Source: Escherichia coli
GTDB taxonomy: Bacteria > Pseudomonadota > Gammaproteobacteria > Enterobacterales > Enterobacteriaceae
DNA length: 64,000 bases
Strand: one strand, 5' to 3'
Assembly: GCF_003991155.1 (NCBI RefSeq)
Contig: NZ_CP031293.1
The notes beneath the pieces were generated by a model that searched no databases, was not told the DNA's origin, and worked only from the letters and a program-made list of their open reading frames with translations. Below are positions 21,298 through 50,722 of this stretch, piece by piece. Both the position numbers and the translations under genes were made by a program. Position 1 is the stretch's first letter. Each line of letters opens with the position of its first letter.

Positions 21298-21308
21298 GTC
21301 ACGTCTCT

Positions 21309-23234: not shown

Positions 23235-23649
23235 ACCTTAAGTGCAGCCCTGGTGCCTGTCGGCACTGCGATGAAAGAACTAAATGATGCCGCCATACCC
23301 TGATCCTTTCAGGGTGGTAGGGGTATAAAGACGCGCCTGTACTCTACCGGACGCTTCCGGGCAACCCACTTCCCACCGAAGTTGTTGGTATTGACTGACT
23401 GGCTGGTCTTCTGGCTTAGCGTCATCCTCTCCCGACCTTCCCAATCTCGCGATCAGTGGCATTTTCGGGTTTGTCAGCATTACAGCAGCGGGGGCTGCGA
23501 GGGATTTTCACCCTCTTCCCAGGCACAAATGTGCCACACCTGTCAGCGTATGTTATGAGCTGATTTCACTTTTCCCATAACAGGGAAATAACGTTAATTA
23601 TTCATTCCAGAGTTTATTTAAACCGTCCTCTTTTTTTGGGGCATTTACT

Positions 23650-24766: not shown

Positions 24767-25576
24767 TTATTCGCTGATTTCTTTAGGCGTTACACTATTG
24801 ACAGGTAAATTCTTTGCAATGAGATAGCGATAAATCGCCGCACCAACACATGCCCCAATGATCGGTGCAATAATGGGTACAATGAAATAAGGAATATTGC
24901 GTCCACCAGTCATCGCAATTTCCCCCCAACCCGCAAACCAGGTGAAAATTTTAGGTCCAAAATCACGCGCTGGATTCATGGCAAAACCGGTTAATGGTCC
25001 GGTAGAAGCACCAATAACAGCAACCAGAATACCAATAAGTAAAGGCGCAAGCGGTCCTTTGGGTACGCCATTACCGTCATCGGTCAACGCCATAATCAAC
25101 CCCATTAACATGGACGTTATGACCACTTCGACCAACGCAGCTTGCCATACATTAATCGCCGCTGCTGGATAAGTACTGAAGATACTGGCGAGTTGTAAAC
25201 TTTCTGCGCTACCACGCACTATATTGTGAGCAGATTCAAAATCGATAAACAAACTGCTGTAGAGAGAATATGCCAGAACCGCACCACCAAAGGCACCCGC
25301 TAATTGCGCCACACAAAATGGCAGCACTTTACGGGCTGGGAAAGAGGCAAACAGCCACAGAGCAATGGTAACTGCCGGGTTGAGATGAGCGCCGGAAATA
25401 CCTGCCGTAAGGTAAACAGCAAGCGAAATCCCTAACCCCCATATGATACAAATTTCCCACAGTCCCAGACTTGCCCCGGCAACTTTCAGGGCGCACAAAC
25501 AACCAATGCCAAAAAAGAGGAACAGTCCGGTGCCCAAAAACTCGGCAACGCATTGCGCCTTGAGTGAATCATTCAT
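24767..25576 (-). CDS. pduF: propanediol diffusion facilitator PduF (MIP/aquaporin family)
   Basis: NPA motif (HLNPAVT), multi-pass membrane; likely start MNDSLKAQC... at 25576. Confidence 0.85.
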   Translation of the reverse strand: MNDSLKAQCVAEFLGTGLFLFFGIGCLCALKVAGASLGLWEICIIWGLGISLAVYLTAGISGAHLNPAVTIALWLFASFPARKVLPFCVAQLAGAFGGAVLAYSLYSSLFIDFESAHNIVRGSAESLQLASIFSTYPAAAINVWQAALVEVVITSMLMGLIMALTDDGNGVPKGPLAPLLIGILVAVIGASTGPLTGFAMNPARDFGPKIFTWFAGWGEIAMTGGRNIPYFIVPIIAPIIGACVGAAIYRYLIAKNLPVNSVTPKEISE

Positions 25577-26009
25577 AGTGACACCTTCTTTACGGAGTTT
25601 TTCTTTATCAGCCAACTATGCGCTGATTGTTGTGTATACCGAGCGCAACTATAAAAAATTGCTCTGCAGAAAATATTGCCAACATGCATGACAGACTCGT
25701 GTAAAAATCGTGCTAACATAACAAATTATTGTCATTGCCGAATCATGCAACACAGCTTTAATCAGTGTTGAAGTAATAATTTCCACCAAACTTTTACAAT
25801 AAAAAATTGCCATCATGACATAATAAAATTGAAACAAATATCACAGTTCCTTCCTCGAACCAAACTCAACGAAATATTATTCGCGATTAAACTCACTAGC
25901 CAACGCAATTAATTCACATTGAAACATCCACAAAACAACCAATAAATTAACAACATATAGTTCATAAAAGCAATTTTATTATATTTGTTCTCTAGGTAAT
26001 GACTCCAAC

Positions 26010-26513
26010 TTATTGATAGTGTTTTATGTTCAGATAATGCCCGATGACTTTGTCATGCAGCTCCACCGATTTTGAAAACGACAGCGACTTCCGTCCCAGC
26101 CGTGCCAGGTGCTGCCTCAGATTCAGGTTATGCCGCTCAATTCGCTGCGTATATCGCTTGCTGATTACGTGCAGCTTTCCCTTCAGGCGGGATTCATACA
26201 GCGGCCAGCCATCCGTCATCCATATCACCACGTCAAAGGGTGACAGCAGGCTCATAAGACGCCCCAGCGTCGCCATAGTGCGTTCACCGAATACGTGCGC
26301 AACAACCGTCTTCCGGAGCCTGTCATACGCGTAAAACAGCCAGCGCTGGCGCGATTTAGCCCCGACGTATCCCCACTGTTCGTCCATTTCCGCGCAGACG
26401 ATGACGTCACTGCCCGGCTGTATGCGCGAGGTTACCGACTGCGGCCTGAGTTTTTTAAATGGCGGAAAATCGTGTTGAGGCCAACGCCCATAATGCGGGC
26501 GGTTGCCCGGCAT
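26010..26513 (-). CDS. insB: IS1 InsB (transposase catalytic part; InsAB' by -1 frameshift at the A6C motif)
   Basis: 167 aa InsB sequence; TTTAAAAAAC motif present on the coding strand. Confidence 0.9.
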
Positions 26514-26707
26514 CCAACGCCATTCATGGCCATATCAATGATTTTCTGGTGCGTACCGGGTTGAGAAGCGGTGTAAGTGAACTGCAGTTGCCATGTTTTA
26601 CGGCAATGAGAGCAGAGATAGCGCTGATGTCCGGCGGTGCTTTTGCCGTTACGCACCACTCCGTCAGTAGCTGAACAGGAGGGACAGCTGATAGAAACAG
26701 AAGCCAC
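26432..26707 (-). CDS. insA: IS1 InsA
   Basis: [43 protein letters not shown]...; 91 aa. Confidence 0.9.
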
Positions 26708-26863
26708 TGGAGCACCTCAAAAACACCATCATACACTAAATCAGTAAGTTGGCAGCATCACCTGTTCTCTATTAATTTTTCTCATTAGCCGAGTAAGTCA
26801 GCCATTCTTTTTCCTCGCTTTTTTTTATAGTCATATCGTCAAAAAAATCCAGGCGAGGTCTTT

Positions 26864-27148
26864 ATGCAACAAGAAGCGTTAGGAATGGTAGAAACCAAAG
26901 GCTTAACTGCCGCCATAGAGGCCGCAGATGCCATGGTGAAGTCGGCAAATGTTTTGCTGGTCGGCTACGAAAAAATAGGTTCCGGGCTGGTGACCGTCAT
27001 CGTTCGTGGTGATGTCGGGGCGGTAAAAGCGGCAACAGACGCGGGTGCCGCAGCTGCGCGTAACGTCGGCGAAGTAAAAGCCGTACACGTTATTCCCCGC
27101 CCACATACCGATGTCGAAAAAATCTTACCAAAGGGAATTAACCCATGA
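26864..27148 (+). CDS. pduA: BMC shell protein PduA
   Basis: 94-aa BMC-domain protein ([24 protein letters not shown]), first gene of the operon. Confidence 0.9.
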
Positions 27149-27957
27149 GCAGCAATGAACTGGTCGAACAGATCATGGCGCAGGTCATCGCTCGCGTAGC
27201 GACGCCAGAGCATGAGGTTCTCCCGAAAACCACTCATCAAATACGAGAGACGGCTATGGCAGAAAAAAGCTGCACGTTAACAGAATTTGTTGGCACCGCT
27301 ATTGGCGACACTGTAGGTCTGGTCATTGCGAACGTTGATAGCGCCCTGTTGGACGCGATGAAACTTGAAAAACGCTATCGTTCCATTGGCATTCTGGGGG
27401 CGCGTATTGGCGCAGGGCCACACATTATGGCCGCTGATGAAGCGGTAAAAGCCACCAACACTGAAGTTATTAGCATTGAACTTCCTCGCGATACTAAAGG
27501 CGGTGCCGGACACGGCTCATTGATCCTCTTAGGTGGCAACGATGTTTCCGACGTGAAACGCGGTATTGAAGTTGCCCTGAAAGAACTCGATCGGACCTTT
27601 GGTGATGTCTATGCCAACGAAGCCGGGCATCTTGAACTGCAATACACCGCCCGCGCCAGCTATGCACTGGAAAAAGCGTTTGGCGCTCCACTGGGACGGG
27701 CTTGCGGCGTTATTGTCGGCGCTCCGGCTGCGGTGGGTGTTCTGATGGCCGACACCGCGCTGAAGTCCGCCAATGTGGATGTCGTGGCATACAGCTCCCC
27801 CGCTCAAGGCACCAGCTACAGCAACGAAGTCATTCTGATTATCTCGGGTGACTCCGGCGCAGTCCGCCAGGCGGTCATCTCCGCACGCGCAATCGGTAAA
27901 ACCGTGCTTTCGACTCTCGGCGATACACCGAAAAACGATCGCCCTTCCTACATCTGA
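27145..27957 (+). CDS. pduB: BMC shell protein PduB (tandem BMC domain)
   Basis: 270 aa, position and length as PduB. Confidence 0.85.
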
Positions 27958-27975
27958 ATTCTCTGAGGCAGATTT

Positions 27976-29640
27976 ATGAGATCGAAAAGATTTGAAGCAC
28001 TGGCAAAACGCCCGGTCAACCAGGACGGTTTCGTTAAAGAGTGGATTGAAGAAGGCTTCATTGCGATGGAAAGCCCGAACGATCCTAAACCGTCAATCAA
28101 AATTGTTAACGGCGTCGTTACCGAACTGGATGGAAAACCCGCCAGTCAGTTTGACCTGATCGACCACTTTATCGCCCGCTACGGCATCAATCTCGCGCGC
28201 GCAGAAGAAGTCATCGCGATGGATTCGGTAAAACTTGCCAATATGTTGTGCGATCCAAATGTCAAACGTAGCGATATCGTTCCCCTTACCACAGCAATGA
28301 CGCCTGCAAAAATCGTCGAAGTGGTTTCGCAGATGAACGTGGTAGAGATGATGATGGCGATGCAGAAAATGCGCGCCCGTCGAACACCATCACAACAGGC
28401 TCACGTCACCAACATCAAAGATAACCCGGTACAAATTGCCGCCGACGCAGCTGAAGGCGCATGGCGCGGGTTTGATGAACAGGAAACCACTGTTGCCGTT
28501 GCTCGCTATGCACCGTTCAACGCCATCGCCCTGCTGGTCGGCTCACAGGTGGGACGTCCGGGCGTCTTGACCCAGTGTTCACTGGAAGAAGCCACCGAAC
28601 TGAAACTCGGTATGTTAGGCCACACCTGTTACGCCGAAACAATTTCTGTCTATGGTACAGAACCTGTTTTCACCGATGGCGATGATACCCCGTGGTCAAA
28701 AGGATTTCTCGCGTCATCCTATGCTTCTCGCGGCTTAAAAATGCGCTTTACTTCCGGCTCCGGCTCTGAAGTACAGATGGGTTACGCGGAAGGCAAATCA
28801 ATGCTTTATCTCGAGGCTCGATGCATTTACATCACCAAAGCCGCAGGCGTTCAGGGTCTGCAGAATGGTTCGGTAAGCTGCATCGGTGTTCCATCAGCTG
28901 TGCCATCAGGCATCCGCGCAGTATTAGCGGAAAACTTAATTTGCTCATCGCTGGATCTGGAATGCGCCTCCAGTAATGACCAGACCTTTACCCACTCGGA
29001 TATGCGCCGTACCGCACGTTTCCTGATGCAATTTCTGCCGGGTACCGACTTTATCTCGTCCGGTTTTTCCGCTGTGCCGAACTACGACAACATGTTTGCT
29101 GGTTCAAACGAAGATGCTGAAGACTTCGATGATTACAACGTCATTCAGCGTGACCTGAAGGTTGATGGCGGGCTGCGACCAGTACGCGAAGAAGATGTTA
29201 TCGCAATCCGCAATAAAGCCGCTCGCGCTTTACAGGCTGTCTTTGCCGGTATGGGACTACCGCCAATTACCGATGAAGAAGTCGAAGCGGCAACCTATGC
29301 CCACGGTTCGAAAGATATGCCTGAGCGCAATATTGTGGAAGACATCAAGTTCGCCCAGGAGATTATCAATAAAAACCGTAACAGCCTGGAAGTGGTGAAA
29401 GCCCTGGCGCAAGGCGGTTTTACCGATGTCGCCCAGGACATGCTCAACATGCAAAAAGCAAAACTGACCGGCGATTATCTCCATACCTCAGCCATCATCG
29501 TCGATGACGGACAAGTGCTCTCAGCGGTCAATGACATCAATGATTACGCCGGACCAGCTACAGGTTACCGCCTGCAAGGGGAACGCTGGGAAGAGATCAA
29601 AAATATTCCCGGTGCACTTGATCCCAACGAAATTGACTAA
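27976..29640 (+). CDS. pduC: B12-dependent diol dehydratase large subunit PduC
   Basis: 554 aa; start MRSKRFEALAKRPVNQDGFVKEWIEEG. Confidence 0.9.
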   Translation: MRSKRFEALAKRPVNQDGFVKEWIEEGFIAMESPNDPKPSIKIVNGVVTELDGKPASQFDLIDHFIARYGINLARAEEVIAMDSVKLANMLCDPNVKRSDIVPLTTAMTPAKIVEVVSQMNVVEMMMAMQKMRARRTPSQQAHVTNIKDNPVQIAADAAEGAWRGFDEQETTVAVARYAPFNAIALLVGSQVGRPGVLTQCSLEEATELKLGMLGHTCYAETISVYGTEPVFTDGDDTPWSKGFLASSYASRGLKMRFTSGSGSEVQMGYAEGKSMLYLEARCIYITKAAGVQGLQNGSVSCIGVPSAVPSGIRAVLAENLICSSLDLECASSNDQTFTHSDMRRTARFLMQFLPGTDFISSGFSAVPNYDNMFAGSNEDAEDFDDYNVIQRDLKVDGGLRPVREEDVIAIRNKAARALQAVFAGMGLPPITDEEVEAATYAHGSKDMPERNIVEDIKFAQEIINKNRNSLEVVKALAQGGFTDVAQDMLNMQKAKLTGDYLHTSAIIVDDGQVLSAVNDINDYAGPATGYRLQGERWEEIKNIPGALDPNEID

Positions 29641-29649
29641 GGGTGAGAA

Positions 29650-30318
29650 ATGGAAATTAACGAAAAATTACTGCGTCAGATTATCGAAGGCGTGCTGGCA
29701 GAAATGCAAACCAGCGACAAGTCCGTTTCATTTCGTGCACCTGTCTCTGCAACTGTCTCTTCAGTGCCAGATACCGGAAATTTTCTGACCGAAATTGGCG
29801 AAGCCCAACAAGGCACTCAGCAAGATGAAGTCATTATTGCTGTAGGCCCGGCGTTCGGCCTGGCGCAAACCGTCAATATCATCGGTATTCCGCATAAAAA
29901 CATTTTGCGCGAAGTGATTGCCGGTATCGAAGAAGAAGGCATTAAAGCCCGTGTGATTCGCTGCTTTAAATCGTCCGATGTCGCATTCGTAGCAGTCGAA
30001 GGCGATCGTCTTAGTGGTTCAGGTATTGCTATCGGTATTCAGTCGAAAGGCACAACGGTTATCCACCAGCAGGGACTTCCCCCCTTGTCTAACCTGGAAC
30101 TTTTCCCACAAGCGCCTTTGTTGACGCTGGATACTTATCGTCAGATTGGCAAAAACGCCGCGCGTTATGCGAAGCGCGAGTCTCCACAACCGGTGCCGAC
30201 CCTCAACGATCAAATGGCGCGACCGAAATACCAGGCCAAATCTGCCATTTTGCATATTAAAGAGACGAAGTACGTGGTCACTGGCAAAAAACCGCAAGAA
30301 CTGCGCGTGACGTTTTAA
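29650..30318 (+). CDS. pduD: diol dehydratase medium subunit PduD
   Basis: 222 aa following pduC. Confidence 0.85.
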
Positions 30319-30332
30319 CAAAGGAAACCTTC

Positions 30333-30851
30333 ATGAATACCGATGCAATTGAGTCGATGGTCAGGGACGTGTTGAACCGCATGAACAGTTTACAGGGTGC
30401 AGCTCCTGTTTCTGCGGTCCCCAGCGCGTCAATACAGAGCGCCAAAGTGACGGATTACCCGCTGGCAAATAAACATCCGGAATGGGTTAAAACAGCAACC
30501 AATAAAACGCTCGACGATTTCACTCTGGAAAATGTGCTCAGCGATAACGTCACCGCCCAGGATATGCGCATTACCCCTGAAACATTGCGTATTCAGGCCG
30601 CGATTGCCAGAGATGCTGGTCGCGATCGCCTGGCGATGAATTTCGAACGCGCCGCTGAGCTTACCTCAGTACCGGATGATCGCATCCTCGAAATCTACAA
30701 TGCGTTACGCCCTTATCGTTCGACTAAGCAAGAACTTATTGCCATTGCTGACGATCTTGAACGGCGTTATCAGGCCAAAATTTGTGCTGCATTTGTCCGT
30801 GAAGCTGCGGAACTTTATGTCGAGCGCAAAAAACTGAAAGGCGACGATTAA
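30333..30851 (+). CDS. pduE: diol dehydratase small subunit PduE
   Basis: 172 aa following pduD. Confidence 0.85.
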   Translation: MNTDAIESMVRDVLNRMNSLQGAAPVSAVPSASIQSAKVTDYPLANKHPEWVKTATNKTLDDFTLENVLSDNVTAQDMRITPETLRIQAAIARDAGRDRLAMNFERAAELTSVPDDRILEIYNALRPYRSTKQELIAIADDLERRYQAKICAAFVREAAELYVERKKLKGDD

Positions 30852-30887
30852 GGACGAACTATGCGATATGACGATTAAGGACGAACT

Positions 30888-32720
30888 ATGCGATATATAG
30901 CAGGCATTGATATCGGCAACTCATCAACAGAGGTTGCGCTGGCAACGCTCAGTGCAACTGGAGAGTTGTCGTTCGTGAGTAGCGCCCTGGCGGAAACCAC
31001 CGGAATTAAAGGTACGTTGCGTAACGTCCATGGTATTCAGGAGGCGCTCGCACAGGCAACGAAAAAAGTCGGCATCAATGTTAGCGATATTTCGCTTATT
31101 CGTATCAACGAAGCAACTCCGGTCATTGGTGATGTGGCGATGGAAACCATCACTGAAACTATCATCACCGAATCAACCATGATCGGTCACAACCCGAAAA
31201 CGCCGGGCGGAGTGGGGCTGGGCGTAGGGCTCACCATCACTCCGCAAGAGTTATTAACATGCCCGGCGGACACACCCTACATTCTGGTGGTGTCATCGGC
31301 ATTTGATTTTGCCGATATCGCAACAATGATAAACGCCTCCGTACGCGCCGGATATCAGCTGACTGGCGTTATTCTGCAACGCGACGATGGCGTACTGGTC
31401 AATAACCGCCTGGAAATTCCTCTCCCTATTGTTGATGAAGTCCTCTACATCGATCGTATTCCGCTCGGCATGCTGGCTGCGATTGAAGTTGCCGTTCCCG
31501 GGAAAGTTATCGAAACCCTGTCTAACCCGTATGGGATTGCCACCGTTTTCGCCCTCAATGCTGAAGAGACTAAAAATATTGTTCCTGTCGCGCGGGCGCT
31601 AATCGGCAACCGTTCAGCAGTGGTAGTGAAAACGCCTTCTGGCGACGTTAAAGCCCGTTCGATACCCGCCGGAAATATCGAACTGCTTTCTGCCGGGCGC
31701 ACAACGCGGGTTGATGTAGCTGCTGGTGCCGATGCCATTATGAAAGCGGTCGGTGAGTGCCCAAAACTGGAAAACGTGACGGGAGAACCTGGCTCCAACA
31801 TCGGCGGAATGCTGGAACATGTTCGCCAGACCATGGCTGAACTGACCAACAAACCCAGCCACGAAATTTTTATTCAGGATTTGCTGGCGATAGATACCTC
31901 TGTCCCCGTCAACGTAACCGGTGGTCTGGCAGGTGAATTTTCACTGGAACAGGCTGTGGGTATTGCCTCTATGGTGAAATCCGACCGTCTGCAAATGGCG
32001 ATGATCGCCAGTGAAATTAAGCAAAAACTGCATGTTGATGTTCAGGTCGGAGGCGCAGAAGCAGAAGCCGCCATTCAAGGGGCCTTGACTACCCCTGGAA
32101 CCACACGTCCACTGGCAATTCTGGACTTAGGTGCAGGCTCTACCGATGCCTCCATCATCAATCAGAAAGGGGAAATTGTTGCCACTCACCTTGCGGGTGC
32201 GGGCGACATGGTAACGATGATTATCGTTCGTGAGCTGGGCTTAAATGATCGTTATCTGGCAGAAGAAATCAAAAAGTACCCGTTGGCAAAAGTAGAAAGC
32301 CTGTTCCACTTACGCCATGAAGATGGCAGCGTTCAGTTCTTCCCTACTCCCCTATCCCCCTATGTATTTGCCCGCGTCTGTGTAGTGAAACCCGACGAAC
32401 TGGTGCCTATTCCCGGTGATTTGACGCTGGAAAAAGTACGCGCTGTTCGTCGCAGTGCGAAAGAGCGTGTCTTCGTAACCAATGCCCTGCGCGCGCTACG
32501 TCAGGTAAGCCCTGCCGGAAATATTCGCGACATTCCGTTCGTCGTTCTGGTGGGCGGTTCTTCGCTGGATTTCGAAGTACCACAGTTAGTCACCGATGCA
32601 TTGGCGCATTATCGACTGGTCGCCGGACGGGGGAATATCCGTGGTAGCGAAGGTCCGCGCAACGCGGTAGCTACTGGGCTACTCATCGCCTGGCACAAGG
32701 AGTCGATTCATGGAAAGTAA
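30888..32720 (+). CDS. pduG: diol dehydratase reactivase large subunit PduG
   Basis: 610 aa, MRYIAGIDIGNSSTEVALA (ASKHA-like N-terminus); preceded by a 27-bp tandem duplication of its ribosome-binding site and start. Confidence 0.85.
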   Translation: MRYIAGIDIGNSSTEVALATLSATGELSFVSSALAETTGIKGTLRNVHGIQEALAQATKKVGINVSDISLIRINEATPVIGDVAMETITETIITESTMIGHNPKTPGGVGLGVGLTITPQELLTCPADTPYILVVSSAFDFADIATMINASVRAGYQLTGVILQRDDGVLVNNRLEIPLPIVDEVLYIDRIPLGMLAAIEVAVPGKVIETLSNPYGIATVFALNAEETKNIVPVARALIGNRSAVVVKTPSGDVKARSIPAGNIELLSAGRTTRVDVAAGADAIMKAVGECPKLENVTGEPGSNIGGMLEHVRQTMAELTNKPSHEIFIQDLLAIDTSVPVNVTGGLAGEFSLEQAVGIASMVKSDRLQMAMIASEIKQKLHVDVQVGGAEAEAAIQGALTTPGTTRPLAILDLGAGSTDASIINQKGEIVATHLAGAGDMVTMIIVRELGLNDRYLAEEIKKYPLAKVESLFHLRHEDGSVQFFPTPLSPYVFARVCVVKPDELVPIPGDLTLEKVRAVRRSAKERVFVTNALRALRQVSPAGNIRDIPFVVLVGGSSLDFEVPQLVTDALAHYRLVAGRGNIRGSEGPRNAVATGLLIAWHKESIHGK

Positions 32721-33060
32721 AGAGCGTGCACCAGCCATCGTCGTCATGGAGATCGGTAACTGCATCACTATATGGGATGAGGTGCTTCTTGGCATTGAAG
32801 AGGAAGGTATTCCCTTTCGCATTCAACACATTCCGTCAGGTGAAGTTATCGATAGCGCCTGGCTGGCTGCTCGTCAATCTCCCCTGTTGGTTGGCATTGC
32901 CTGCGATCAGGAAAAACTGATTGTGCATTACAAAAACTTACCACCATCAGCGCCACTGTTTACGCTGATGTATCAACAAGATAACCATGCCCGGCGCAGC
33001 ATCGGCACTAACGCTGCCCGCCTGGTAAAAGGAATTCCCTTCCGGGAATTCCACTCATAA
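32710..33060 (+). CDS. pduH: diol dehydratase reactivase small subunit PduH
   Basis: 116 aa, overlaps pduG end. Confidence 0.8.
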
Positions 33061-33079
33061 TCCACAGGAGAAACGCAGT

Positions 33080-33355
33080 ATGAACAACGCACTAGGACTG
33101 GTTGAAACAAAAGGGTTAGTTGGCGCAATTGAAGCTGCAGATGCCATGGTTAAATCCGCCAACGTGCAGCTGGTTGGCTATGAAAAGATTGGTTCGGGTC
33201 TGATTACGGTGATGGTCCGCGGTGATGTTGGTGCAGTAAAGGCCGCCGTGGATGCGGGGAGCGCTGCGGCAAGCGCAGTTGGCGAAGTGAAATCCTGCCA
33301 TGTCATCCCGCGCCCACACAGTGATGTTGAGGCTATTTTACCTAAATCGGCATAA
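33080..33355 (+). CDS. pduJ: BMC shell protein PduJ
   Basis: 91-aa BMC-domain protein, near-paralog of PduA. Confidence 0.9.
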
Positions 33356-33378
33356 CCCCATTTGCTAAGGAGCACAGC

Positions 33379-33801
33379 GTGAAGCAATCACTGGGATTAC
33401 TTGAAGTCAGTGGTCTGGCACTCGCCATCAGTTGCGCAGATGCTATGGCAAAAGCCGCGTCCATCACGCTGGTTGGCCTTGAGAAGACCAATGGCTCAGG
33501 CTGGACGCTCATCAAAATCACCGGTGACGTCGCCTCGGTTAATGCGGCGATCGCGACGGGAGCCAGTTTCGCCGGACAGCGAAATGGCCTCGTCGCACAC
33601 AAAGTGATTGCCCGTCCGGGAGACGGCATTCTGCCCCACACAACTAAAGCATTGACTGTGACGGTTGAAACAAGCGAAACACCAGCAACAACCGTCATCT
33701 CAGAGATTATCAGTTGTAATTTGTGTCTTGACCCGGCATGTCAGCGGCAAAAAGGTGAGCCCCGCTCACTTTGCCTGCACGCCAATAAGCGAGGGGAGTA
33801 A
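33379..33801 (+). CDS. pduK: BMC shell protein PduK
   Basis: BMC domain plus C-terminal Cys-rich tail (CNLCLDPACQRQ). Confidence 0.8.
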   Translation: MKQSLGLLEVSGLALAISCADAMAKAASITLVGLEKTNGSGWTLIKITGDVASVNAAIATGASFAGQRNGLVAHKVIARPGDGILPHTTKALTVTVETSETPATTVISEIISCNLCLDPACQRQKGEPRSLCLHANKRGE

Positions 33802-33803
33802 CA

Positions 33804-34436
33804 GTGGATAAACAAACCTTGCAGGAAACAGTGAGCCAGATTCTGGATGAGATGCGCGAGCGCCCTATCCCTCTGGGTGTTTCCAGTCGTCATATTCATC
33901 TTTCAACAGCGGATTATTTGCGTCTTTTTCCTGAACAACCGATTAGCGAGAAAAAGCCGTTAATGCAACCTGGCCAATTCGCTGCTGAACAGGTTGTTAC
34001 GCTGGAGGGACCAAAAGGTAAATTGCACAACGTTCGCTTGTTGGGGCCGCTACGCAATGCAAGCCAGGTGGAAATTTCCCGGACGGACGCCAGAACGTTA
34101 GGGATCACCGCCCCGCTACGCATGTCAGGCGATCTCAGCGGCACTCCAGGGATTCGTTTGGTAAGCCCATTTGCGGAACTGGAGATCACATCTGGCGTCA
34201 TTGTCGCGCAACGGCATATTCATATGTCTCCGCTGGATGCCCTGATTTATGGCGTTACGCATGGCGATAAAGTGGCGGTTGCCATTGAAGGTGATGAGCG
34301 ACGACTGATATTCGAAAACGTCGCTGTTCGCGTCTCTCCGGATATGCGTCTTGAAATGCATATTGATACCGATGAAGCCAACGCCGCAGGGGCTGATAGC
34401 CCTGACGTTTTTGCCACACTGGTGTCAGTGCCATGA
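33804..34436 (+). CDS. pduL: phosphate propanoyltransferase PduL
   Basis: 210 aa in PduL position. Confidence 0.8.
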   Translation: MDKQTLQETVSQILDEMRERPIPLGVSSRHIHLSTADYLRLFPEQPISEKKPLMQPGQFAAEQVVTLEGPKGKLHNVRLLGPLRNASQVEISRTDARTLGITAPLRMSGDLSGTPGIRLVSPFAELEITSGVIVAQRHIHMSPLDALIYGVTHGDKVAVAIEGDERRLIFENVAVRVSPDMRLEMHIDTDEANAAGADSPDVFATLVSVP

Positions 34437-34924
34437 ATAACATGCTGATGCAACGTATTGTTGACGAAGTGGTTTTTCGCCTTAAACAACGTGCGGGAAA
34501 AACACTCGTGCTGACTGTTTTTCAACTGCGAGACGCCAGCGTTCAAGAGATAGTTCATCAGTATGCATCATTACAAATCCGATATGTCGATCTGCCGTTG
34601 TTACGACAACTTGCGGAGAACAAAACGTCAGATCGAGCAGCAATTCAGATACACGAAGCGTTAGCCTGGGGATTGCACATTCAATTGTCGTTGCAGCGTC
34701 ATTTCCTGAACGCCATTGAATTGAAGACTCTCGCCCGTCTACCGCTAAGCTGGTGCGACGAGCAAGGGCAACCGATCTACCTTCATCGTGATCGACTTTT
34801 AAGTTATGCCGATATTGCACAGTTAAGCTCGGGAATACTGGTGTTACAGCGAAAATGTTGTGTGACCGCACTGGCTCGTGAAGCGGCAATTACCCGAAAT
34901 ATTCAGTTAATCAGGCAGGAGTAA
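34433..34924 (+). CDS. pduM: microcompartment protein PduM
   Basis: 163 aa in PduM position. Confidence 0.75.
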   Translation: MNNMLMQRIVDEVVFRLKQRAGKTLVLTVFQLRDASVQEIVHQYASLQIRYVDLPLLRQLAENKTSDRAAIQIHEALAWGLHIQLSLQRHFLNAIELKTLARLPLSWCDEQGQPIYLHRDRLLSYADIAQLSSGILVLQRKCCVTALAREAAITRNIQLIRQE

Positions 34925-34927
34925 CCT

Positions 34928-35203
34928 ATGCATCTGGCTCGAGTCACTGGCGCGGTAGTATCCACGCAAAAATCACCTTCTCTGATCGGGAAAAAACTGC
35001 TGCTGGTTCGCCGGGTCAGTGCTGACGGCGAACTGCCTCTCACGCCATTAACCGGCGACGAAGTTGCCGTTGATTCCGTCGGCGCAGGCGTTGGTGAGTT
35101 GGTACTCCTCAGCAGTGGTTCCAGCGCCAGACATGTGTTTTCCGGCCCTAACGAGGCCATCGACCTGGCAGTGGTCGGCATTGTCGATACGCTTTCGCGC
35201 TAA
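34928..35203 (+). CDS. pduN: BMC vertex protein PduN (EutN/CcmL family)
   Basis: 91 aa, [15 protein letters not shown] EutN/CcmL-like N-terminus. Confidence 0.85.
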
Positions 35204-35214
35204 GGAGCTGAAAG

Positions 35215-36222
35215 ATGGCAATTTATACCCGAACAGGTGATTCAGGAAGTACGTCTTTATTTACCGGACAGCGCGTCAGCAAAACTCATCTACGTGTCGA
35301 AACCTATGGCACGCTGGATGAACTGAACGCGACACTCAGTCTGTGTTATTGCGCCACCGCCATCGAAAGCCATCGCATCTTACTGGAAGCCATTCAACAA
35401 CAGATATTTTGGTTTAGCGCCGAACTCGCCAGTGAAAGCGAACAGCCGTCAGCGCAGCAGCGTTACATCGGTACGGAAGAAATTGCCGCGCTGGAAAACG
35501 CGATCGATAGCGCAATGAACGCCGTCCCCCCGGTTCACAGCTTCATTCTGCCTGGTCGATGTGAAGCTGCAAGCCGCATGCATTTCGCCCGCACGGTGGC
35601 TCGACGGGCTGAAAGACGTCTGGTTGAACTGACAACAGAAACCACCGTCCGGAATGTTTTGCTGCACTATATCAACCGACTTTCCGATTGCCTGTATGCC
35701 CTCGCCCGCGTGGAAGACAACGTTGCTCATCAAAACCTGATGATTCAGGAAATCACAAAACGTTATCACGAAGCCAACCACACACCAGCATTGAAGGAAC
35801 GCACAATGCCGCTCACTTTTCAGGATCTTCACCAGCTCATTCGTAGTGCGGCAATGCGCGCAGATGAACTGCATATTCCCGTTGTCATCAGCATTGTTGA
35901 TGCCAACGGAACAGAAAGTGTTACCTGGCGGATGCCTGATGCCCTGTTGGTCAGCAGTGAACTGGCACCGAAAAAAGCCTGGACCGCCGTGGCGATGAAA
36001 ACGGCAACCCACAAACTTGCTGATACCGTGCAACCCGGCGCGCCGCTTTACGGGCTCGAAAGCCATATGCAAGGCAAAGTCGTCACTTTTGGTGGCGGCT
36101 TCCCCCTCTGGCGTGACGGAAAATTGCTTGGCGGGCTTGGCATCAGCGGCGGTAGCGTTGAACAAGACATGGATATTGCCCAAAGCGCAATGGCGGCAAT
36201 TAACGTGGGAGTAAACCAATGA
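35215..36222 (+). CDS. pduO: ATP:cob(I)alamin adenosyltransferase PduO
   Basis: N-terminal MAIYTRTGDSGSTSL PduO-type adenosyltransferase signature plus C-terminal domain. Confidence 0.85.
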   Translation: MAIYTRTGDSGSTSLFTGQRVSKTHLRVETYGTLDELNATLSLCYCATAIESHRILLEAIQQQIFWFSAELASESEQPSAQQRYIGTEEIAALENAIDSAMNAVPPVHSFILPGRCEAASRMHFARTVARRAERRLVELTTETTVRNVLLHYINRLSDCLYALARVEDNVAHQNLMIQEITKRYHEANHTPALKERTMPLTFQDLHQLIRSAAMRADELHIPVVISIVDANGTESVTWRMPDALLVSSELAPKKAWTAVAMKTATHKLADTVQPGAPLYGLESHMQGKVVTFGGGFPLWRDGKLLGGLGISGGSVEQDMDIAQSAMAAINVGVNQ

Positions 36223-37604
36223 ATAACTCTGAATTAGAAACACTGATCCGCAATATTCTGCGTGAGCAGCTTGCCCCCGCTACGCAACGAGCGCAAAGAA
36301 ACGCTATTTTCCAGACTGTTGATGAAGCGGTCTGCGCAGCGCACCAGGCCTTTTTACGCTTTCAACAGTGCCCGCTTAAAACCCGTAGCGCCATTATCAG
36401 CGCCATTCGCGAAGAATTAATGCCCCGCCTTACCGAACTGGCAGAAGAAAGCGCCAGTGAAACAGGGATGGGAAATAAAGAGGATAAGTATCTAAAGAAC
36501 AAAGCAGCACTCAATAATACGCCAGGAATTGAAGATTTAACCACCACTGCACTAACCGGTGATGGTGGCATGGTTTTGTTTGAATACTCCCCGTTTGGGG
36601 TTATTGGCTCGGTCACGCCAAGCACCAACCCCACGGAAACCATCATTAACAACAGCATCAGCATGCTGGCAGCAGGTAATAGCGTCTACTTCAGTCCACA
36701 CCCGGGAGCCAAATACGTTTCGTTAAAACTGATTACCACAATCGAAGACATCGCGTTTCGCTGTAGTGGCATTCACAACCTGATCGTTACCGTATCTGAA
36801 CCGACCTTTGCCGCCACCGAACAGATGATGGCGCACCCTAAAATCAGCGTTCTGGCGATTACCGGCGGTCCGGGGATCGTCGCCATGGGAATGAAAAGTG
36901 GCAAGAAAGTGATTGGTGCCGGTGCGGGTAACCCTCCGTGCATCGTCGATGAAACGGCGGATATTGTGAAAGCCGCCGAAGATATCATCAACGGCGCTTC
37001 ATTTGATTACAACCTGCCGTGTATCGCTGAAAAAAGCCTGATTGTCGTGGCATCAGTGGCAGAGTATTTAATTCAGCAGATGCAAAGTTTTGGCGCGCTT
37101 CTTCTTAACTATGAGCAAACGGAGAAATTGCGTGCAATTTGCCTGCCAGACGGTAGCGCCAACAAAAAACTGGTTGGGAAAAGCCCATCAGCCTTGCTGG
37201 AAGCGGCAGGCCTCCCTTTGCCCGCAAAAGCGCCGCGCCTACTGATTGCTGTTGTCGACGCCAATGATAGTTGGGTTACTTGTGAACAACTGATGCCAAT
37301 GCTGCCCATTGTGAAGGTCAACGATTTTGATAGCGCTCTCGCCCTGGCGTTGAAAGTGGAAGACGGCTTGCACCACACGGCAATTATGCACTCGCAGAAC
37401 GTCTCACGGCTCAACCTTGCCGCGCGCGTTATGCAAACCTCAATCTTTGTCAAAAACGGCCCCTCTTGGGCGGGTATTGGCGTCGGCGGCGAAGGCTTTA
37501 CGACCTTTACTATTGCAACACCGACCGGAGAAGGGACAACGTCAGCACGGACTTTTGCCCGCTCACGACGCTGTGTGTTAACCAGCGGCTTTTCAATTCG
37601 CTAG
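36219..37604 (+). CDS. pduP: CoA-acylating propionaldehyde dehydrogenase PduP
   Basis: 461 aa aldehyde dehydrogenase-family sequence in PduP position. Confidence 0.85.
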   Translation: MNNSELETLIRNILREQLAPATQRAQRNAIFQTVDEAVCAAHQAFLRFQQCPLKTRSAIISAIREELMPRLTELAEESASETGMGNKEDKYLKNKAALNNTPGIEDLTTTALTGDGGMVLFEYSPFGVIGSVTPSTNPTETIINNSISMLAAGNSVYFSPHPGAKYVSLKLITTIEDIAFRCSGIHNLIVTVSEPTFAATEQMMAHPKISVLAITGGPGIVAMGMKSGKKVIGAGAGNPPCIVDETADIVKAAEDIINGASFDYNLPCIAEKSLIVVASVAEYLIQQMQSFGALLLNYEQTEKLRAICLPDGSANKKLVGKSPSALLEAAGLPLPAKAPRLLIAVVDANDSWVTCEQLMPMLPIVKVNDFDSALALALKVEDGLHHTAIMHSQNVSRLNLAARVMQTSIFVKNGPSWAGIGVGGEGFTTFTIATPTGEGTTSARTFARSRRCVLTSGFSIR

Positions 37605-37614
37605 AGAAACGGAA

Positions 37615-38727
37615 ATGAATACTTTTTCACTGCAGACGCGTTTATACAGCGGACCAGGAAGTCTCAAGGTACTTAGCCGTTTCTCTCATAGACACATCTG
37701 GATTATTTGCGATGCCTTTCTGGCACACTCACCACTCATTGACACGTTGCATCAGGCGCTGCCAGACAGTAATCGTCTCAGTATTTTTAGCGAAATAACG
37801 CCCGACCCAACTATCCAGACCGTGGTGAAAGGCATTGCGCAAATGCAGACTTTACGCCCGGATGTGGTTATCGGTTTTGGCGGCGGTTCTGCCCTGGACG
37901 CCGCAAAAGCGATTGTCTGGTTTGGTCGCCAGTGTGGCATTGAAATTGAAACCTGCGTAGCCATTCCTACCACCAGCGGTACCGGTTCCGAAGTGACCAG
38001 TGCTTGTGTCATCAGCGATCCTGAGAAAGGGATTAAATATCCCCTTTTCGATAATGCACTTTATCCGGATATCGCGATCCTTGATCCATCTCTGGTCGTC
38101 AGCGTGCCACCGGCGATAACGGCCAATACCGGGATGGATGTTTTAACCCATGCGCTTGAAGCTTATGTTTCTCCTCGCGCCAGCGACTTCACGGATGCAC
38201 TGGTCGAAAAAGCCGTGCAAATTGTTTTTCAATACCTGCCCACTGCAGTGAAGAAAGGCGATTGTCTCGCCACCCGTGGCAAAATGCATAATGCATCGAC
38301 ACTTGCAGGAATGGCCTTTAGCCAGGCTGGACTGGGATTAAACCATGCAATTGCTCATCAACTCGGCGGACAGTTTCATCTGCCACACGGCCTGGCGAAT
38401 GCGCTCCTGCTCACGGCGGTTATCCGCTTTAATGCTGGCGATCCGCGCGCTGCCAAACGCTACGCCCGGCTGGCGAAAACGTGCCATTTATGCCCGGACA
38501 ACGCCAATGACACCGCCAGCCTGAATGCACTTATTCAACATATTGAACAGCTTAAAACAACCTGTACGCTGCCGACTCTTACCAATGCGCTGAAAGAAAA
38601 AAAAGCAGAATGGTCAATACGCATACCAGATATGGTTCAGGCGGCACTGGCGGATGCAACGTTGCGTACCAACCCGCGTGCGGCTGATGCCTCCGCGATT
38701 GCAGAACTGCTCGAGGAGTTGTTATGA
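37615..38727 (+). CDS. pduQ: propanol dehydrogenase PduQ (iron-containing alcohol dehydrogenase)
   Basis: Fe-ADH motifs (GFGGGSALDAAKA; HAIAHQLGG). Confidence 0.85.
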   Translation: MNTFSLQTRLYSGPGSLKVLSRFSHRHIWIICDAFLAHSPLIDTLHQALPDSNRLSIFSEITPDPTIQTVVKGIAQMQTLRPDVVIGFGGGSALDAAKAIVWFGRQCGIEIETCVAIPTTSGTGSEVTSACVISDPEKGIKYPLFDNALYPDIAILDPSLVVSVPPAITANTGMDVLTHALEAYVSPRASDFTDALVEKAVQIVFQYLPTAVKKGDCLATRGKMHNASTLAGMAFSQAGLGLNHAIAHQLGGQFHLPHGLANALLLTAVIRFNAGDPRAAKRYARLAKTCHLCPDNANDTASLNALIQHIEQLKTTCTLPTLTNALKEKKAEWSIRIPDMVQAALADATLRTNPRAADASAIAELLEELL

Positions 38728-40067
38728 ACGTCGAGTTAACCTCCTGCGACGACCAGACCATCCGCGAGCGAGTACAGGCAGCAGGTGTCGTGGGTGCTGG
38801 CGGGGCAGGTTTTCCAACCCATATTAAGCTACAAGCGCGTGTTGACACGTTCCTGGTGAATGCGGCGGAATGCGAACCCATGTTGAAAGTGGATCAACAG
38901 TTAATGGTGCAGCAAGCCAGCCGCCTGCTTCGCGGTGTTCACTATGCGATGAAAGCCACCGGGGCCAGTAGCGGAATCATCGCGCTGAAAGAGAAATATC
39001 AACGGGCAATAAACGCACTCACACCACTGTTACCACCGGATATCCGCCTGCATATTTTGCCCGATGTTTACCCCGCAGGAGACGAAGTGCTGACCATCTG
39101 GATGGCAACTGGTCGCCGCGTTCCACCCGCTGCATTACCCGTTAGCGTCGGTGTGGTGGTCAATAATGTTCAAACCGTACTTAATATTGCCAGAGCCGTC
39201 GAGCAACAGTATCCAGTGACGCGCCGCACACTCACTATTAATGGTGCAGTGGCGAAACCAATAACGGTAACCGTCCCCATCGGCATGTCTTTCCGTGAAG
39301 TCCTGGCGCTGGCGGGCGGCGCAACAGTAGATGCTCCTGGTTTTATCAATGGCGGGCCGATGATGGGAAGTTTGATCACATCGCTCGACACACCCGTCAG
39401 CAAAACCACTGGCGGCTTGCTGGTTTTACCCAACTCTCATTCACTGATCCAACGTCGAATGCAGAATGACCGCAGCGTACTTACCGTCGCGAAAACTGTT
39501 TGTGAGCAATGCCGCTTGTGTACCGATCTCTGCCCACGTCATTTAGTCGGTCACGAACTGGCCCCCCATTTATTAGTACGTGCGGTTAACTACCAACAGC
39601 TCGCTACGCCACAACTGTTACTGACGGCGCTCACCTGTTCGGAGTGCAACGTCTGCGCCAGCGTCGCCTGTCCGGTAGGAATTTTACCAATGCGCATAAA
39701 CCGCCTGCTTAAGCAGGAATTACGCGCACAAAATCTCCGCTACGAAGGTGCCTTAAATCCTGCAGATCCCTTGGCAAATTATCGACTGGTTCCCGTAAAA
39801 CGGCTGGTAACCAGACTGGGCTTAACCCCGTGGTATCAGGATGCGCCATTGTCTGAACAGGTGCCTCAGCCCGAAAAAGTGACGTTATTGTTACGCCAGC
39901 ACATCGGTGCCAGCGCAATTGCGTGTGTACAAAAAGGCGATCGCGTCGTTCATGGGCAATGTGTAGGTCAAATTCCACACGGCACATTAGGTGCCCCCAT
40001 TCATGCCAGTATTGATGGCATGGTCAGCGATGTGACAGAAAACGCGATTACGCTTGTGAGAGGTTAA
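38724..40067 (+). CDS. pduS: cobalamin reductase PduS (Fe-S flavoprotein)
   Basis: Two Cys clusters [12 protein letters not shown] and [13 protein letters not shown]; 447 aa. Confidence 0.85.
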
Positions 40068-40069
40068 CG

Positions 40070-40624
40070 ATGTCGAAAGCGGTAGGTATTTTAGAACTTA
40101 GCAGTATCGCGAAAGGGATGGAAACCGGCGACGCCATGCTGAAAAGCGCCAACGTTGAGTTACTGGTCAGCAAAACGCTATGCCCCGGAAAATTTCTGCT
40201 GATGCTCGGTGGCGATGTGGGCGCGGTGCAACAGGCCATCAACAGCGGTGCTTCCCTTGCTGGTGAAATGCTGGTCGACAGTCTTGTCCTGCCGAATATT
40301 CATCCCAGTCTCCTTTCTGCAATCAGCGGACTGAACCAAGTTGAACAGCACCGGGCTGTCGGCGTAGTCGAAACCTGGAGTGTCGCCGCCTGCATTGACG
40401 CTGCCGATTGTGCTGTCAAAGCTGCGAATGTCATTCTTGTTCGCGTGCATATGGCTTTTGGCATTGGCGGTAAATGCTACATGGTGGTTGCTGGCGATAT
40501 TTCAGATGTTAATAACGCGGTCTCTGTCGCCAGCGAGCGTGCGGGAGAAAAAGGTTTGTTGGTCTATCGGTCGGTGATTGCCCGTCCACATGAAGCCATG
40601 TGGCGTCAGATGGTGGAGGGATAA
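40070..40624 (+). CDS. pduT: BMC shell protein PduT (tandem BMC domain)
   Basis: 184 aa tandem BMC protein. Confidence 0.85.
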
Positions 40625-40974
40625 TGACAACTCAGCACACAACTGAACGGATGATTCAGGAATATGTCCCTGGTAAGCAGGTCACGCTGGCACATGTCAT
40701 CGCCAATCCAGGGAAGGATCTGTTTAAGAAATTGGGTTTACCAGACACCGTTTCTGCTATTGGCATTCTGACGATTACCCCCAGCGAAGCATCTATCATC
40801 GCATGCGATATCGCCACAAAATCAGGCGCTGTAGAGATCGGTTTTCTTGATCGTTTTACCGGTGCCGTAGTGCTGACTGGTGATGTTTCTGCCATTGAAT
40901 ATGCACTTAGCCAGGTTACCCGTACGCTGGGTGAAATGATGCGCTTTACCACCTGCCCCATTACGCGGACCTGA
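40624..40974 (+). CDS. pduU: BMC shell protein PduU
   Basis: 116 aa from the ATG that overlaps the pduT stop (TAATG). Confidence 0.8.
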
Positions 40975-40978
40975 CGTT

Positions 40979-41422
40979 ATGCAACGTATGATGCTTATCG
41001 GCCCCAGCCAGTGCGGAAAAACGTCACTCACGCAATGTCTGCGTGGCGAAAATATCCATTATCAGAAAACGCAGGCAATCGTCTGGTCCCCGACCACCAT
41101 TGATACACCAGGCGAATACCTCGAAAACCGCAGCCTCTACAGTGCATTGTTGGTCAGTGCCTGCGAAGCAGACATTATCGCGCTGGTACTTAATGCGGAC
41201 GCACCGTGGTCACCTTTTTCGCCAGGCTTTACCTCGTCAATGAATCGCCCGGTCATTGGAGTAGTAACCAAAGCAGATTTAGCCAGTATGGAACAAATAT
41301 CTTTGGTGAAATGTTGGTTACGGGAAGCTGGAGCGCACAACGTGTTAGTAACCAGTGCGGTTAATAACAATGGAGTTACAGAAGTTTTTGCCTTGCTGCA
41401 TACAGAAGAAGGCTGTCGCTAA
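40979..41422 (+). CDS. pduV: GTPase PduV (EutP/PduV family)
   Basis: P-loop [13 protein letters not shown]; last gene of the operon here. Confidence 0.85.
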
Positions 41423-41480
41423 TTTCGATAGGTTCTCAGATGAGAATGATGACGGTGATACACAGATAAGAATCAATGAG

Positions 41481-41509
41481 CAATGAGGGTTGCCGGGCAA
41501 CCCTCATTG
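41481..41509. terminator. bidirectional intrinsic terminator between convergent pduV and yeeX
   Basis: Perfect palindrome AATGAGGGTTGCC/GGGCAACCCTCATT flanked by A/T runs. Confidence 0.6.
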
Positions 41510-41522
41510 AATAAAACAGGAA

Positions 41523-41852
41523 TTACTTCGCTTCGCCGTTTTTCATTTCGCCCATAGCTTTCAGCTTTTTGGAGATATCGCGGCGTTCTTTGGAGAGCTC
41601 GGCATTTTTGATGATGTAATCGTCAACGCGATCTTCATAGTCACCTTTCATGCTGGCGATGATGCCCTGGATTGCTTCAACGCTCATCCCTGGCTTGATG
41701 TAATCGCTCAGGTTGTCCAGCAACAGGACGCGCTTCTGGTTGTCACGGATCTTTTTCTCAACGTCCTGAATTTCACGTTGCAGTTTGTTCTTACGACGGA
41801 ACAGACGAACAAATTCCAGTACGTCCTGGAATGAAGGCTTGGTAGTTTCCAT
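41523..41852 (-). CDS. yeeX: DUF496 protein YeeX
   Basis: [30 protein letters not shown]... matches YeeX from memory; start at internal Met of the longer ORF. Confidence 0.8.
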
Positions 41853-42023
41853 TTTTATACCCCTGATAATGTGAGAGTCGGATTCGTTTAAGCAACCGCT
41901 ATTCGTTAGGGCCAACATTACTCATAGCTGCCGCAGATGACAATGCTTTTATCCCTTTTCACTATCATACCCTTTATCCTTGCTGAATCGAAGCAGCAGC
42001 AAGATGATTCTGAAGTTCAGGAA

Positions 42024-43082
42024 TTATTTGCGCAAGGCCCGGCAAATCAGATTCGATAGCAACTCAAGCTGATGTGCCGTTTCCATGTTCAGCCACACAT
42101 AACCATAGATTGGTGTTTCTACGACTTTCAGGTCATGGTGGTTATCGAGCAACTGACGCAACTCTTCCACAGCATCGTTCAATTTTTCCGTATTGGCAAA
42201 AACCGGCTGCGGATTACCTTCGTACAGCGCATGAACAAGGCTCAGCAGTATTTGCTGCATCATGTGCTGGGTATCACGAAGTTTTTGCGCGTTCAATAAC
42301 ACGAAATGGCTGGGGCGCGTGGCCCAGTATGCATTGATTTGCAACTCCAGCATACAAACCAGATTGCGATTAATGGTCTGGATACCTTCATATATCGATT
42401 TGGGAATACGGGTTTCTTTGCTGGCGGGCGCAATCAGCCCACGCATTTTCACGGCATCGGTCAGCAGTTTTTGTAGATGGCTTTCCAGACGTGGGCGTTC
42501 GAGTAAGTTCGGTGAGAATGCAGATTGATAGACCCGATTATACTCGGTCAGACTTTTCGCCAGTTGAATGCGCCAGTGGATGAACGCCCGTTGTGGCCAG
42601 ATACCGGTAAACAACATTGCCAGTAAAGAGCCGAGGATCACATCGCCGCTTCGCCACAACGCCGTATCAATTTCACCTGTCGGGGAACCCACAACAATTG
42701 CCAGCGTCACCCCAATCAATAATCCTTGATACGGTTTCTTGCCCAGCGCCAGCCAACCGCAAAGAAACATCGCCGCCGCGCACCAGACTAACATCAGCGG
42801 TAACGAAATTAACTCCAGTTGCAGAGCGATAAGACCTAAAATCGAACCCAACACCGTACCGCCAATACGTTCGAAGGCACGAGGGACAACGTTACCCCAG
42901 AACGAGATTGGCCCCATAATCACCACCATGGTGACCAGCGGCCAGGTACTTTCCGGGATAGTAAACAGGCGGATAATGAGAAAAGTGAGCAGGAATGCCA
43001 GCGCGACCCGAGTACCATGCACAATGCGGTAATGGCGGTATACCCGGATTTCAAACGGGCTTAATGACTTATCGGCACGCAC
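42024..43082 (-). CDS. yeeA: inner membrane protein YeeA
   Basis: 352-aa membrane protein between yeeX and sbmC, as in E. coli. Confidence 0.75.
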   Translation of the reverse strand: MRADKSLSPFEIRVYRHYRIVHGTRVALAFLLTFLIIRLFTIPESTWPLVTMVVIMGPISFWGNVVPRAFERIGGTVLGSILGLIALQLELISLPLMLVWCAAAMFLCGWLALGKKPYQGLLIGVTLAIVVGSPTGEIDTALWRSGDVILGSLLAMLFTGIWPQRAFIHWRIQLAKSLTEYNRVYQSAFSPNLLERPRLESHLQKLLTDAVKMRGLIAPASKETRIPKSIYEGIQTINRNLVCMLELQINAYWATRPSHFVLLNAQKLRDTQHMMQQILLSLVHALYEGNPQPVFANTEKLNDAVEELRQLLDNHHDLKVVETPIYGYVWLNMETAHQLELLSNLICRALRK

Positions 43083-45794: not shown

Positions 45795-45814
45795 ATATAC
45801 TGCATTTATTGCAA

Positions 45815-50720: not shown

Positions 50721-50722
50721 AG

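Follow-up and report, generated by a model that had tools for sequence, protein, structure and literature searches.

This DNA, a 64,000-nucleotide stretch (the window) from Escherichia coli, very probably carries an ordinary Escherichia/Shigella PDU1B locus, in which pduW and pduX were lost by an old deletion in the Escherichia lineage and not by a truncation specific to this strain. The absence of pduW and pduX is an already published, genus-wide trait of Escherichia and Shigella pdu loci. The locus is set between cobUST and tmaR (yeeX), with pocR and pduF divergent from the pduA-V operon. Its features are collected in Table 1.

Table 1. Features of the cob/pdu locus and its flanks, in the coordinates of the window.
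Feature	Position	Strand	Assignment and basis
cobT, cobS, cobU	20218..22594	-	nucleotide-loop assembly and cobinamide salvage; RefSeq of identical sequence
CbiG N-terminal fragment	22728..23165	-	145-aa ORF; NCBIfam NF004463 (cobalt-precorrin 5A hydrolase), E = 1e-19
Cobalamin riboswitch	23384..23558	-	Rfam RF00174, 109 bits
pocR	23650..24564	-	1,2-propanediol-responsive AraC-family activator; NCBIfam NF047788 PocR equivalog, 553 bits (cut-off 500)
pduF	24767..25576	-	propanediol diffusion facilitator; MIP family TIGR00861, 224 bits; RefSeq name
IS1	25995..26762	-	768 bp, insAB on minus strand; pduF-pduA control region
pduA	26864-27148	+	shell protein
pduB	27145-27957	+	shell protein
pduC, pduD, pduE	27976..30851	+	B12-dependent diol dehydratase; NCBIfam 1072, 389, 358 bits
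pduG, pduH	30888..33060	+	dehydratase reactivase; TIGR04491 959 bits; Pfam PF02288 for PduH
pduJ, pduK, pduL, pduM, pduN	33080..35203	+	PduL phosphotransacylase, PduN vertex protein; family scans
pduO, pduP	within 35215..40067	+	adenosyltransferase, CoA-acylating aldehyde dehydrogenase; family scans, RefSeq names
pduQ, pduS	within 35215..40067	+	propanol dehydrogenase, cobalamin reductase; family scans, RefSeq names
pduT	40070-40624	+	third-last operon gene
pduU	40624-40974	+	second-last operon gene
pduV	40979-41422	+	final operon gene; TIGR02528 EutP/PduV, 186 bits
Putative shared terminator	41481-41509		perfect 13-bp hairpin between convergent pduV and tmaR
tmaR (yeeX)	41523..41852	-	convergent with pduV; NCBIfam TmaR and DUF496 equivalogs; RefSeq
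yeeA	42024..43082	-	core gene, borders locus in Escherichia and Citrobacter alike

The operon comprises 19 intact ORFs (pduA, B, C, D, E, G, H, J, K, L, M, N, O, P, Q, S, T, U and V; 26864-41422, plus strand), in the Salmonella order as judged by the match of length and order. Their lengths equal those of the RefSeq annotation, and the 16,219 bases of 26864-43082 match E. coli 2016C-3878 at 100% identity, with exactly the same genes in its RefSeq annotation. NCBIfam and Pfam scans confirm PduB, PduCDE, PduG, PduH, PduL, PduM, PduN, PduO, PduP, PduQ, PduS, PduT, PduU and PduV, together with the BMC-H shell proteins PduA, PduJ and PduK. By the same scans the components of a functional Pdu metabolosome are encoded intact, i.e. 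BMC-H, BMC-T and BMC-P shell proteins with PduCDE, PduP, PduQ and PduL. The sequence-only reading, that an E. coli backbone holds a complete pduA-V set at its cob locus, is therefore borne out. 'Complete' refers here to coding capacity only, as expression may be blocked or changed by an IS1 element in the control region.

The arrangement corresponds to a subtype that already has a name. In PLoS Comput Biol (PMC4207490), Axen, Erbilgin and Kerfeld defined PDU1B in 2014 as having every pdu gene except PduX and PduW, cobUST without other cob genes, and yee genes as flank; their examples are E. coli E24377A, LF82 and UMN026, and Shigella sonnei. The present locus agrees on all three counts. It has all the pdu genes of the Salmonella locus bar pduW and pduX, plus pocR and pduF; it adjoins cobUST, with the rest of the cob operon gone; and on its flanks stand a ykuD-like L,D-transpeptidase gene (ldtA) and yeeX/yeeA, as in Escherichia. 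The annotations of ldtA, tmaR (yeeX) and yeeA were taken from 100%-identical E. coli chromosomes. There is no difference in gene content, and this strain adds only the IS1 between pduF and pduA.

The PDU1A locus, found in Salmonella enterica LT2 and in Citrobacter, runs from pduA to pduX beside a cbi-cob operon. It shares the pduA-pduV order, the yeeX/yeeA site and the PocR/PduF control module, with protein identities to Citrobacter of 79-91% for PduV and PduU. It differs at both ends. Here the operon is not ended by pduW (propionate kinase) and pduX (L-threonine kinase), and no cbi/cob operon lies beside it to make B12 de novo. The 17-gene cbi block is gone, cobUST are the sole cob genes remaining, and the interval between cobU and pocR holds just a CbiG fragment and a riboswitch. 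The fragment covers profile positions 1-126 of 351 of NF004463, with a score far under the cut-off, and is labelled 'hypothetical' in RefSeq; it is the scar of the lost cbi operon, and the riboswitch is the former leader of that operon.

That pduW and pduX do not follow pduV, as the sequence-only reading had it, holds for the whole window, where a tblastn search with Citrobacter braakii queries (E<=1e-5) gave no match to either PduW or PduX. The PduW query itself hits NCBIfam PRK12397 at 837 bits; the PduX query belongs to the GHMP kinases. Nor do the genes lie just outside the interval, because tmaR is followed by yeeA, sbmC, dacD and then a P22-like prophage. The ORFs past dacD have no NCBIfam match; Pfam assigns them to the P22-like prophage, and they are unrelated to the pdu question. 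Local alignment of the 100-bp pduV-tmaR spacer to five outgroup loci, with 200 shuffles each, revealed no significant remnant of pduW or pduX. The best alignment pairs the E. coli hairpin with the end of C. braakii pduX (stop codon and terminator); at 14/16 matches it is weak and within the shuffle distribution.

The operon had been described as stopping at a palindromic bidirectional terminator shared with convergent yeeX. The palindrome and the convergence are there: pduV stops at 41422 and tmaR ends at 41523, and the hairpin between them (MFE -22.5 and -23 kcal/mol; z = -4.4 and -3.5) is kept in E. coli, E. whittamii and E. albertii. Yet it lacks a following U-tract on both strands and a consensus terminator scan makes no call there, so that it is best described as a putative terminator.

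We surveyed 5,426 complete E. coli genomes. pduC is present in 642 (~12% pdu-positive), and the contiguous pduU-pduV-tmaR junction in 640, from many hosts and countries; the stretch from pduS to sbmC is covered in 643. pduX was found in none of the 5,426, and a pduW-like gene in one genome, on a separate acquired island. The layout is thus the norm in pdu-positive E. coli, besides being published as PDU1B, and the implied significance of a noteworthy truncation does not stand. The synteny comparison that had been suggested also shows the same pduV-tmaR layout lacking pduW and pduX in E. albertii and E. whittamii, whereas about 20 loci of Citrobacter, Pluralibacter and Pseudocitrobacter have pduV-pduW-pduX-yeeX at the same chromosomal yeeX/yeeA site. 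Citrobacter served as the outgroup and the structure of the Salmonella operon was taken from papers; a scan of genome contigs for E. coli PduV brought up loci from Escherichia and the Citrobacter group and no Salmonella or Klebsiella locus, its peptide patterns being too specific. Divergence from Citrobacter is about equal for PduV (79%) and YeeA (79.5%), which fits vertical descent. A 183-bp 3' fragment of pduV persists beside tmaR in most E. coli that lack pdu, K-12 and O157 among them, and the pduV-tmaR junction is therefore older than the loss of pdu.

The age of the junction, common to the three Escherichia species, and a spacer with no statistically detectable trace of pduW or pduX would fit if the Escherichia layout were ancestral, with the two genes added at the operon end in the Salmonella/Citrobacter lineage and nothing lost in E. 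coli. We consider this improbable. Axen et al. report that PduW is missing specifically from PDU1B, and they derive the other subtypes from PDU1A by loss of ancillary genes (PMC4207490). The Escherichia locus is degenerate next door, as the CbiG fragment testifies, and the alignment of the hairpin with the end of Citrobacter pduX, while not significant, is at a position consistent with an internal deletion. Moreover, E. coli strain 48 (deer, NZ_CP166879.1) has a divergent pdu island with pduW directly 3' of pduV. In that island pocR-pduF and pduA-V are ordered as here, with a riboswitch and then a small ORF upstream. It differs in its pduW, which has 75% DNA identity to that of Citrobacter, although pduX is still absent, and in its site beside btuB, edged by IS66, IS21 and IS4 remnants. 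As the spacer holds no significant remnant, the direction (loss and not gain) rests on parsimony and on the degenerate neighboring cbi region.

A strain-specific or recent deletion from a horizontally acquired Salmonella-like operon, or an assembly artefact, has nothing in its favor beyond the first impression given by comparison with Salmonella, and is refuted by the identical junction in the 640 genomes, by the independent genome with 100% identity across the junction, by the same pduV 3' end beside tmaR in pdu-negative strains, and by the sharing of the junction with other Escherichia species.

The operon encodes the full shell (PduA, B, J, K, M, N, T and U), the conversion of 1,2-propanediol to propionyl-phosphate and 1-propanol (PduCDE, PduP, PduL and PduQ), the reactivation and recycling of B12 (PduGH, PduO and PduS), and PduV. 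The two missing proteins both work in the cytosol, outside the compartment, as is described for Salmonella, where PduX supplies B12 synthesis as an L-threonine kinase (PMC7181861). PduW converts propionyl-phosphate to propionate with formation of ATP, and its place is most likely taken by TdcD and AckA, which are housekeeping paralogues. The search for such substitutes that had been proposed found TdcD, 43% identical to PduW, in 5,377 of the 5,426 genomes (99%), and in a pdu-positive Crohn's isolate TdcD is the sole PduW homologue (PMC7360682). PduX serves the aminopropanol linker of de novo B12, and probably has no use here, since all that is left of the cbi operon is the CbiG fragment behind the old riboswitch; for the same reason the cell would have to salvage corrinoids through cobUST. 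The ancestral Escherichia locus would then have decayed stepwise, with loss of cbi (leaving the CbiG scar), loss of pduWX, and finally loss of pduA-V in most lineages (leaving the pduV stub).

The sole strain-specific feature of the locus is the IS1, which sits 101 bp upstream of the pduA ATG within a 9-bp target duplication (TGTTCTCTA, at 25986-25994 and 26763-26771). The exact empty site is present in another locus (L001), and the IS1 junction upstream of pduA was found in none of the 5,426 complete genomes. Alignment with the strain 48 island gives a conserved block with a candidate -10 element, TATAGT, at 26826-26831; a promoter scan of the pduF-pduA region did not call this candidate, and its total matches were not above those in shuffles. 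Since the CsrA and biosensor papers give no coordinates for the start of Ppdu transcription, the placement of IS1 relative to the promoter is one that we infer. Insertion of IS1 or IS5 activates the cryptic bgl operon. By analogy, we suggest tentatively that IS1 may have uncoupled the pdu operon from PocR, CRP and ArcA, leading either to a silenced microcompartment or to constitutive expression. With IS1 apparently splitting the PocR-dependent control region, 1,2-propanediol-responsive expression and B12-dependent growth are in doubt for the strain that bears it.

What is new here are the population numbers, with pdu present in ~12% of the complete E. coli genomes and the PDU1B layout in essentially every one of these, and the evidence for a locus ancestral to Escherichia that has decayed in steps. 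These may be of use where pduC is considered as a marker of AIEC, and in reconstructing the history of the cob/pdu region. The absence of pduW and pduX itself has a simple rationale: both products are cytosolic accessories, of which PduW would be redundant with TdcD and AckA, and PduX would be pointless where B12 is not made de novo.

The flagged interval holds 19 ORFs whose lengths and order agree with pduA, B, C, D, E, G, H, J, K, L, M, N, O, P, Q, S, T, U and V. Window 26864-43082 (16,219 bases) has a 100% identical counterpart in the E. coli 2016C-3878 chromosome, whose RefSeq annotation gives exactly these pdu genes, then convergent tmaR (yeeX), yeeA, sbmC and dacD. Protein identities were checked independently by NCBIfam and Pfam scans. 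These identified PduB (472 bits), PduC, PduD and PduE (1072, 389 and 358 bits), PduG (959 bits), PduH, PduL, PduM, PduN, the N-terminal domain of PduO, PduP (717 bits), PduQ, an RnfC-like PduS, PduT, PduU and PduV (TIGR02528, 186 bits), with PduA, PduJ and PduK as BMC-H proteins. The sequence-only reading of a complete, ordered pduA-V set is confirmed. The features of the region are summarized in the table.

Features of the pdu region and its surroundings (window coordinates)
Feature	Position	Strand	Remarks
Genomic island at duplicated tRNA-Asn	~1-17350		from the annotation of locus L002, shifted by -500
CbiG-fragment ORF, 145 aa	22728-23165	-	directly 3' of riboswitch; E = 1e-19
Cobalamin riboswitch	23384-23558	-	109 bits; between cobU and pocR
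STnc230 enterobacterial sRNA (Rfam)	24625-24708	+	76 bits, gathering score 50; pocR-pduF intergenic
IS1, 768 bp	25995-26762	- (insAB)	9-bp target duplication TGTTCTCTA; full span 25986-26771
pduA-V, 19 uninterrupted ORFs	26864-41422	+	pduV stop at 41422
Final 183 bp of pduV	41240-41422	+	3001-3183 in the K-12 MG1655 locus (L033)
Perfect 13-bp hairpin	41481-41509		between pduV and tmaR ends
tmaR end	41523	-	opposite strand to pduV
P22-like prophage	~45560-64000	- (genes)	downstream of dacD

A search with PduV over species-representative genomes gave 29 loci. In Citrobacter braakii two ORFs lie between pduV and convergent yeeX/yeeA. The first encodes 404 aa and scores 837 bits to PRK12397 (acetate/propionate kinase equivalog), and is thus PduW; the second, a 288-aa GHMP-kinase protein, is PduX. 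Used as tblastn queries, these two proteins found no match in the 64-kb window, in three E. coli representative loci (L003, L004 and the reference L001), or in those of E. whittamii (L005), E. albertii (L006) and Escherichia sp. MOD1 (L031), whereas full-length matches were obtained in all ~20 Citrobacter, Pluralibacter, Pseudocitrobacter and related loci. The gene order in the latter is invariably pduV-pduW-pduX-yeeX-yeeA. Both genes are therefore truly missing from the locus, as had been claimed. A position just beyond the interval is ruled out, as tmaR, yeeA, sbmC, dacD and then the P22-like prophage stand there. The prophage encodes tailspike, Ant-type antirepressor, ejection proteins, a gp10-like stabilisation protein, coat protein, portal and large terminase; it is at least 80% covered in just five complete genomes, mainly at other sites, and in 2016C-3878 dacD is instead followed by sbcB.

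This layout is the norm in pdu-positive E. coli, an outcome that the sequence-only reading had itself named as a refutation. Among 5,426 complete genomes pduC is present in 642, pduU-pduV-tmaR occurs as a single contiguous match in 640, and pduS to sbmC is covered in 643. A Citrobacter pduW-pduX DNA query in sensitive mode found pduX in none of the 5,426 and a pduW-like gene in one, strain 48 from deer, the sole pduW-bearing E. coli in this set. Its pdu island (L032, NZ_CP166879.1 5238959-5280121) is divergent, lies at another chromosomal site beside btuB, and is bordered by IS66, IS21 and IS4 remnants; pduW follows pduV there, and pduX is still missing. It is already published as locus subtype PDU1B, which has every pdu gene but PduW and PduX (PMC4207490). 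Loci of this subtype are listed for E. coli E24377A, LF82 and UMN026 as well as Shigella sonnei; they encode cobSTU with the rest of the cob operon not co-localised, and have yee genes and a ykuD-like transpeptidase in common (PMC4207490, Text S1). All of these features are found in the window, which thus carries a textbook PDU1B locus, already known. The layout is not unusual, and both the genome counts and the published description show as ordinary what had been flagged as noteworthy.

In most E. coli without pdu, among them K-12 MG1655, O157:H7 and B strains, the match to the window runs from ~41240 on, and the final 183 bp of pduV are retained immediately next to tmaR. This remnant carries an EutP/PduV-family CDS annotation in K-12, where it adjoins the end of the CP4-44 prophage. 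The pduV-tmaR junction therefore predates pdu loss in these strains, and their common deletion endpoint suggests one ancient loss of pduA-V. The junction is also found in E. albertii and E. whittamii, with spacer and hairpin recognisably homologous. Divergence from Citrobacter is about equal for PduV (79%) and the flanking core protein YeeA (79.5%), which argues for vertical descent over recent import. The 145-aa ORF, labelled hypothetical protein in RefSeq, covers just the first 126 CbiG positions (the N-terminal third) and is left over from the lost cbi operon. In the 100-bp pduV-tmaR spacer no significant remnant of pduW or pduX was found, alignment scores falling inside the shuffle range; a weak hint, a 14/16 match of the E. 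coli hairpin to the C. braakii pduX stop and terminator, is not significant. Most economically, an ancestral Salmonella-like cob/pdu region would have decayed stepwise in Escherichia, losing most of cbi as well as pduW-pduX and later, in most E. coli, pduA-V. We infer that the pduWX step was a loss.

The spacer hairpin had been read as a bidirectional terminator shared with tmaR. The palindrome itself stands: it is stable (-22.5 and -23 kcal/mol; z = -4.4 and -3.5) and conserved across Escherichia species. Its role is less secure, as no U-tract lies 3' of it on either strand and a terminator scan did not call it; bidirectional terminator is a reasonable but putative label.

The pduF-pduA intergenic region has 777 bases more in the window than in otherwise identical genomes. 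Removal of IS1 and one TGTTCTCTA copy restores the 2016C-3878 sequence exactly, and the IS1 junction was found in none of the 5,426 genomes. The element is inserted 101 bp ahead of the pduA start codon and just before the segment that is best conserved in comparison with the strain 48 island. The Salmonella operon is a single transcript from PpduA (PMC4600919), and Ppdu is nearly inactive without PocR, with two putative PocR boxes ~215 bp apart (PMC11264322). Given this dependence and spacing, IS1 probably parts the core promoter from control elements further upstream, and may silence or deregulate the operon. Further upstream, the tRNA-Asn island carries a pseudogenised integrase, RHS toxin fragments, IS3, HigA antitoxin and a trio of radical SAM, DUF6375 and 1,352-aa hypothetical genes; a 25-kb query containing it (2001-27000) is at least 80% covered in only 20 complete genomes.

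The genes required up to propionyl-phosphate (PduCDE, PduP, PduL), for NADH recycling (PduQ) and for cofactor maintenance (PduGH, PduO, PduS) are all encoded. The Salmonella PduW and PduX proteins reside in the cytosol, outside the compartment, and PduX is an L-threonine kinase of B12 synthesis (PMC7181861). From its established role we infer that PduX is dispensable here, since without cbi genes no corrin ring would be made and no pathway would be left for it to serve. In a pdu-positive Crohn's isolate TdcD is the only PduW homologue (PMC7360682). TdcD, 43% identical to PduW and present in 5,377 of the 5,426 genomes, would plausibly take over the terminal kinase step. AckA, a core gene, would be a further candidate.
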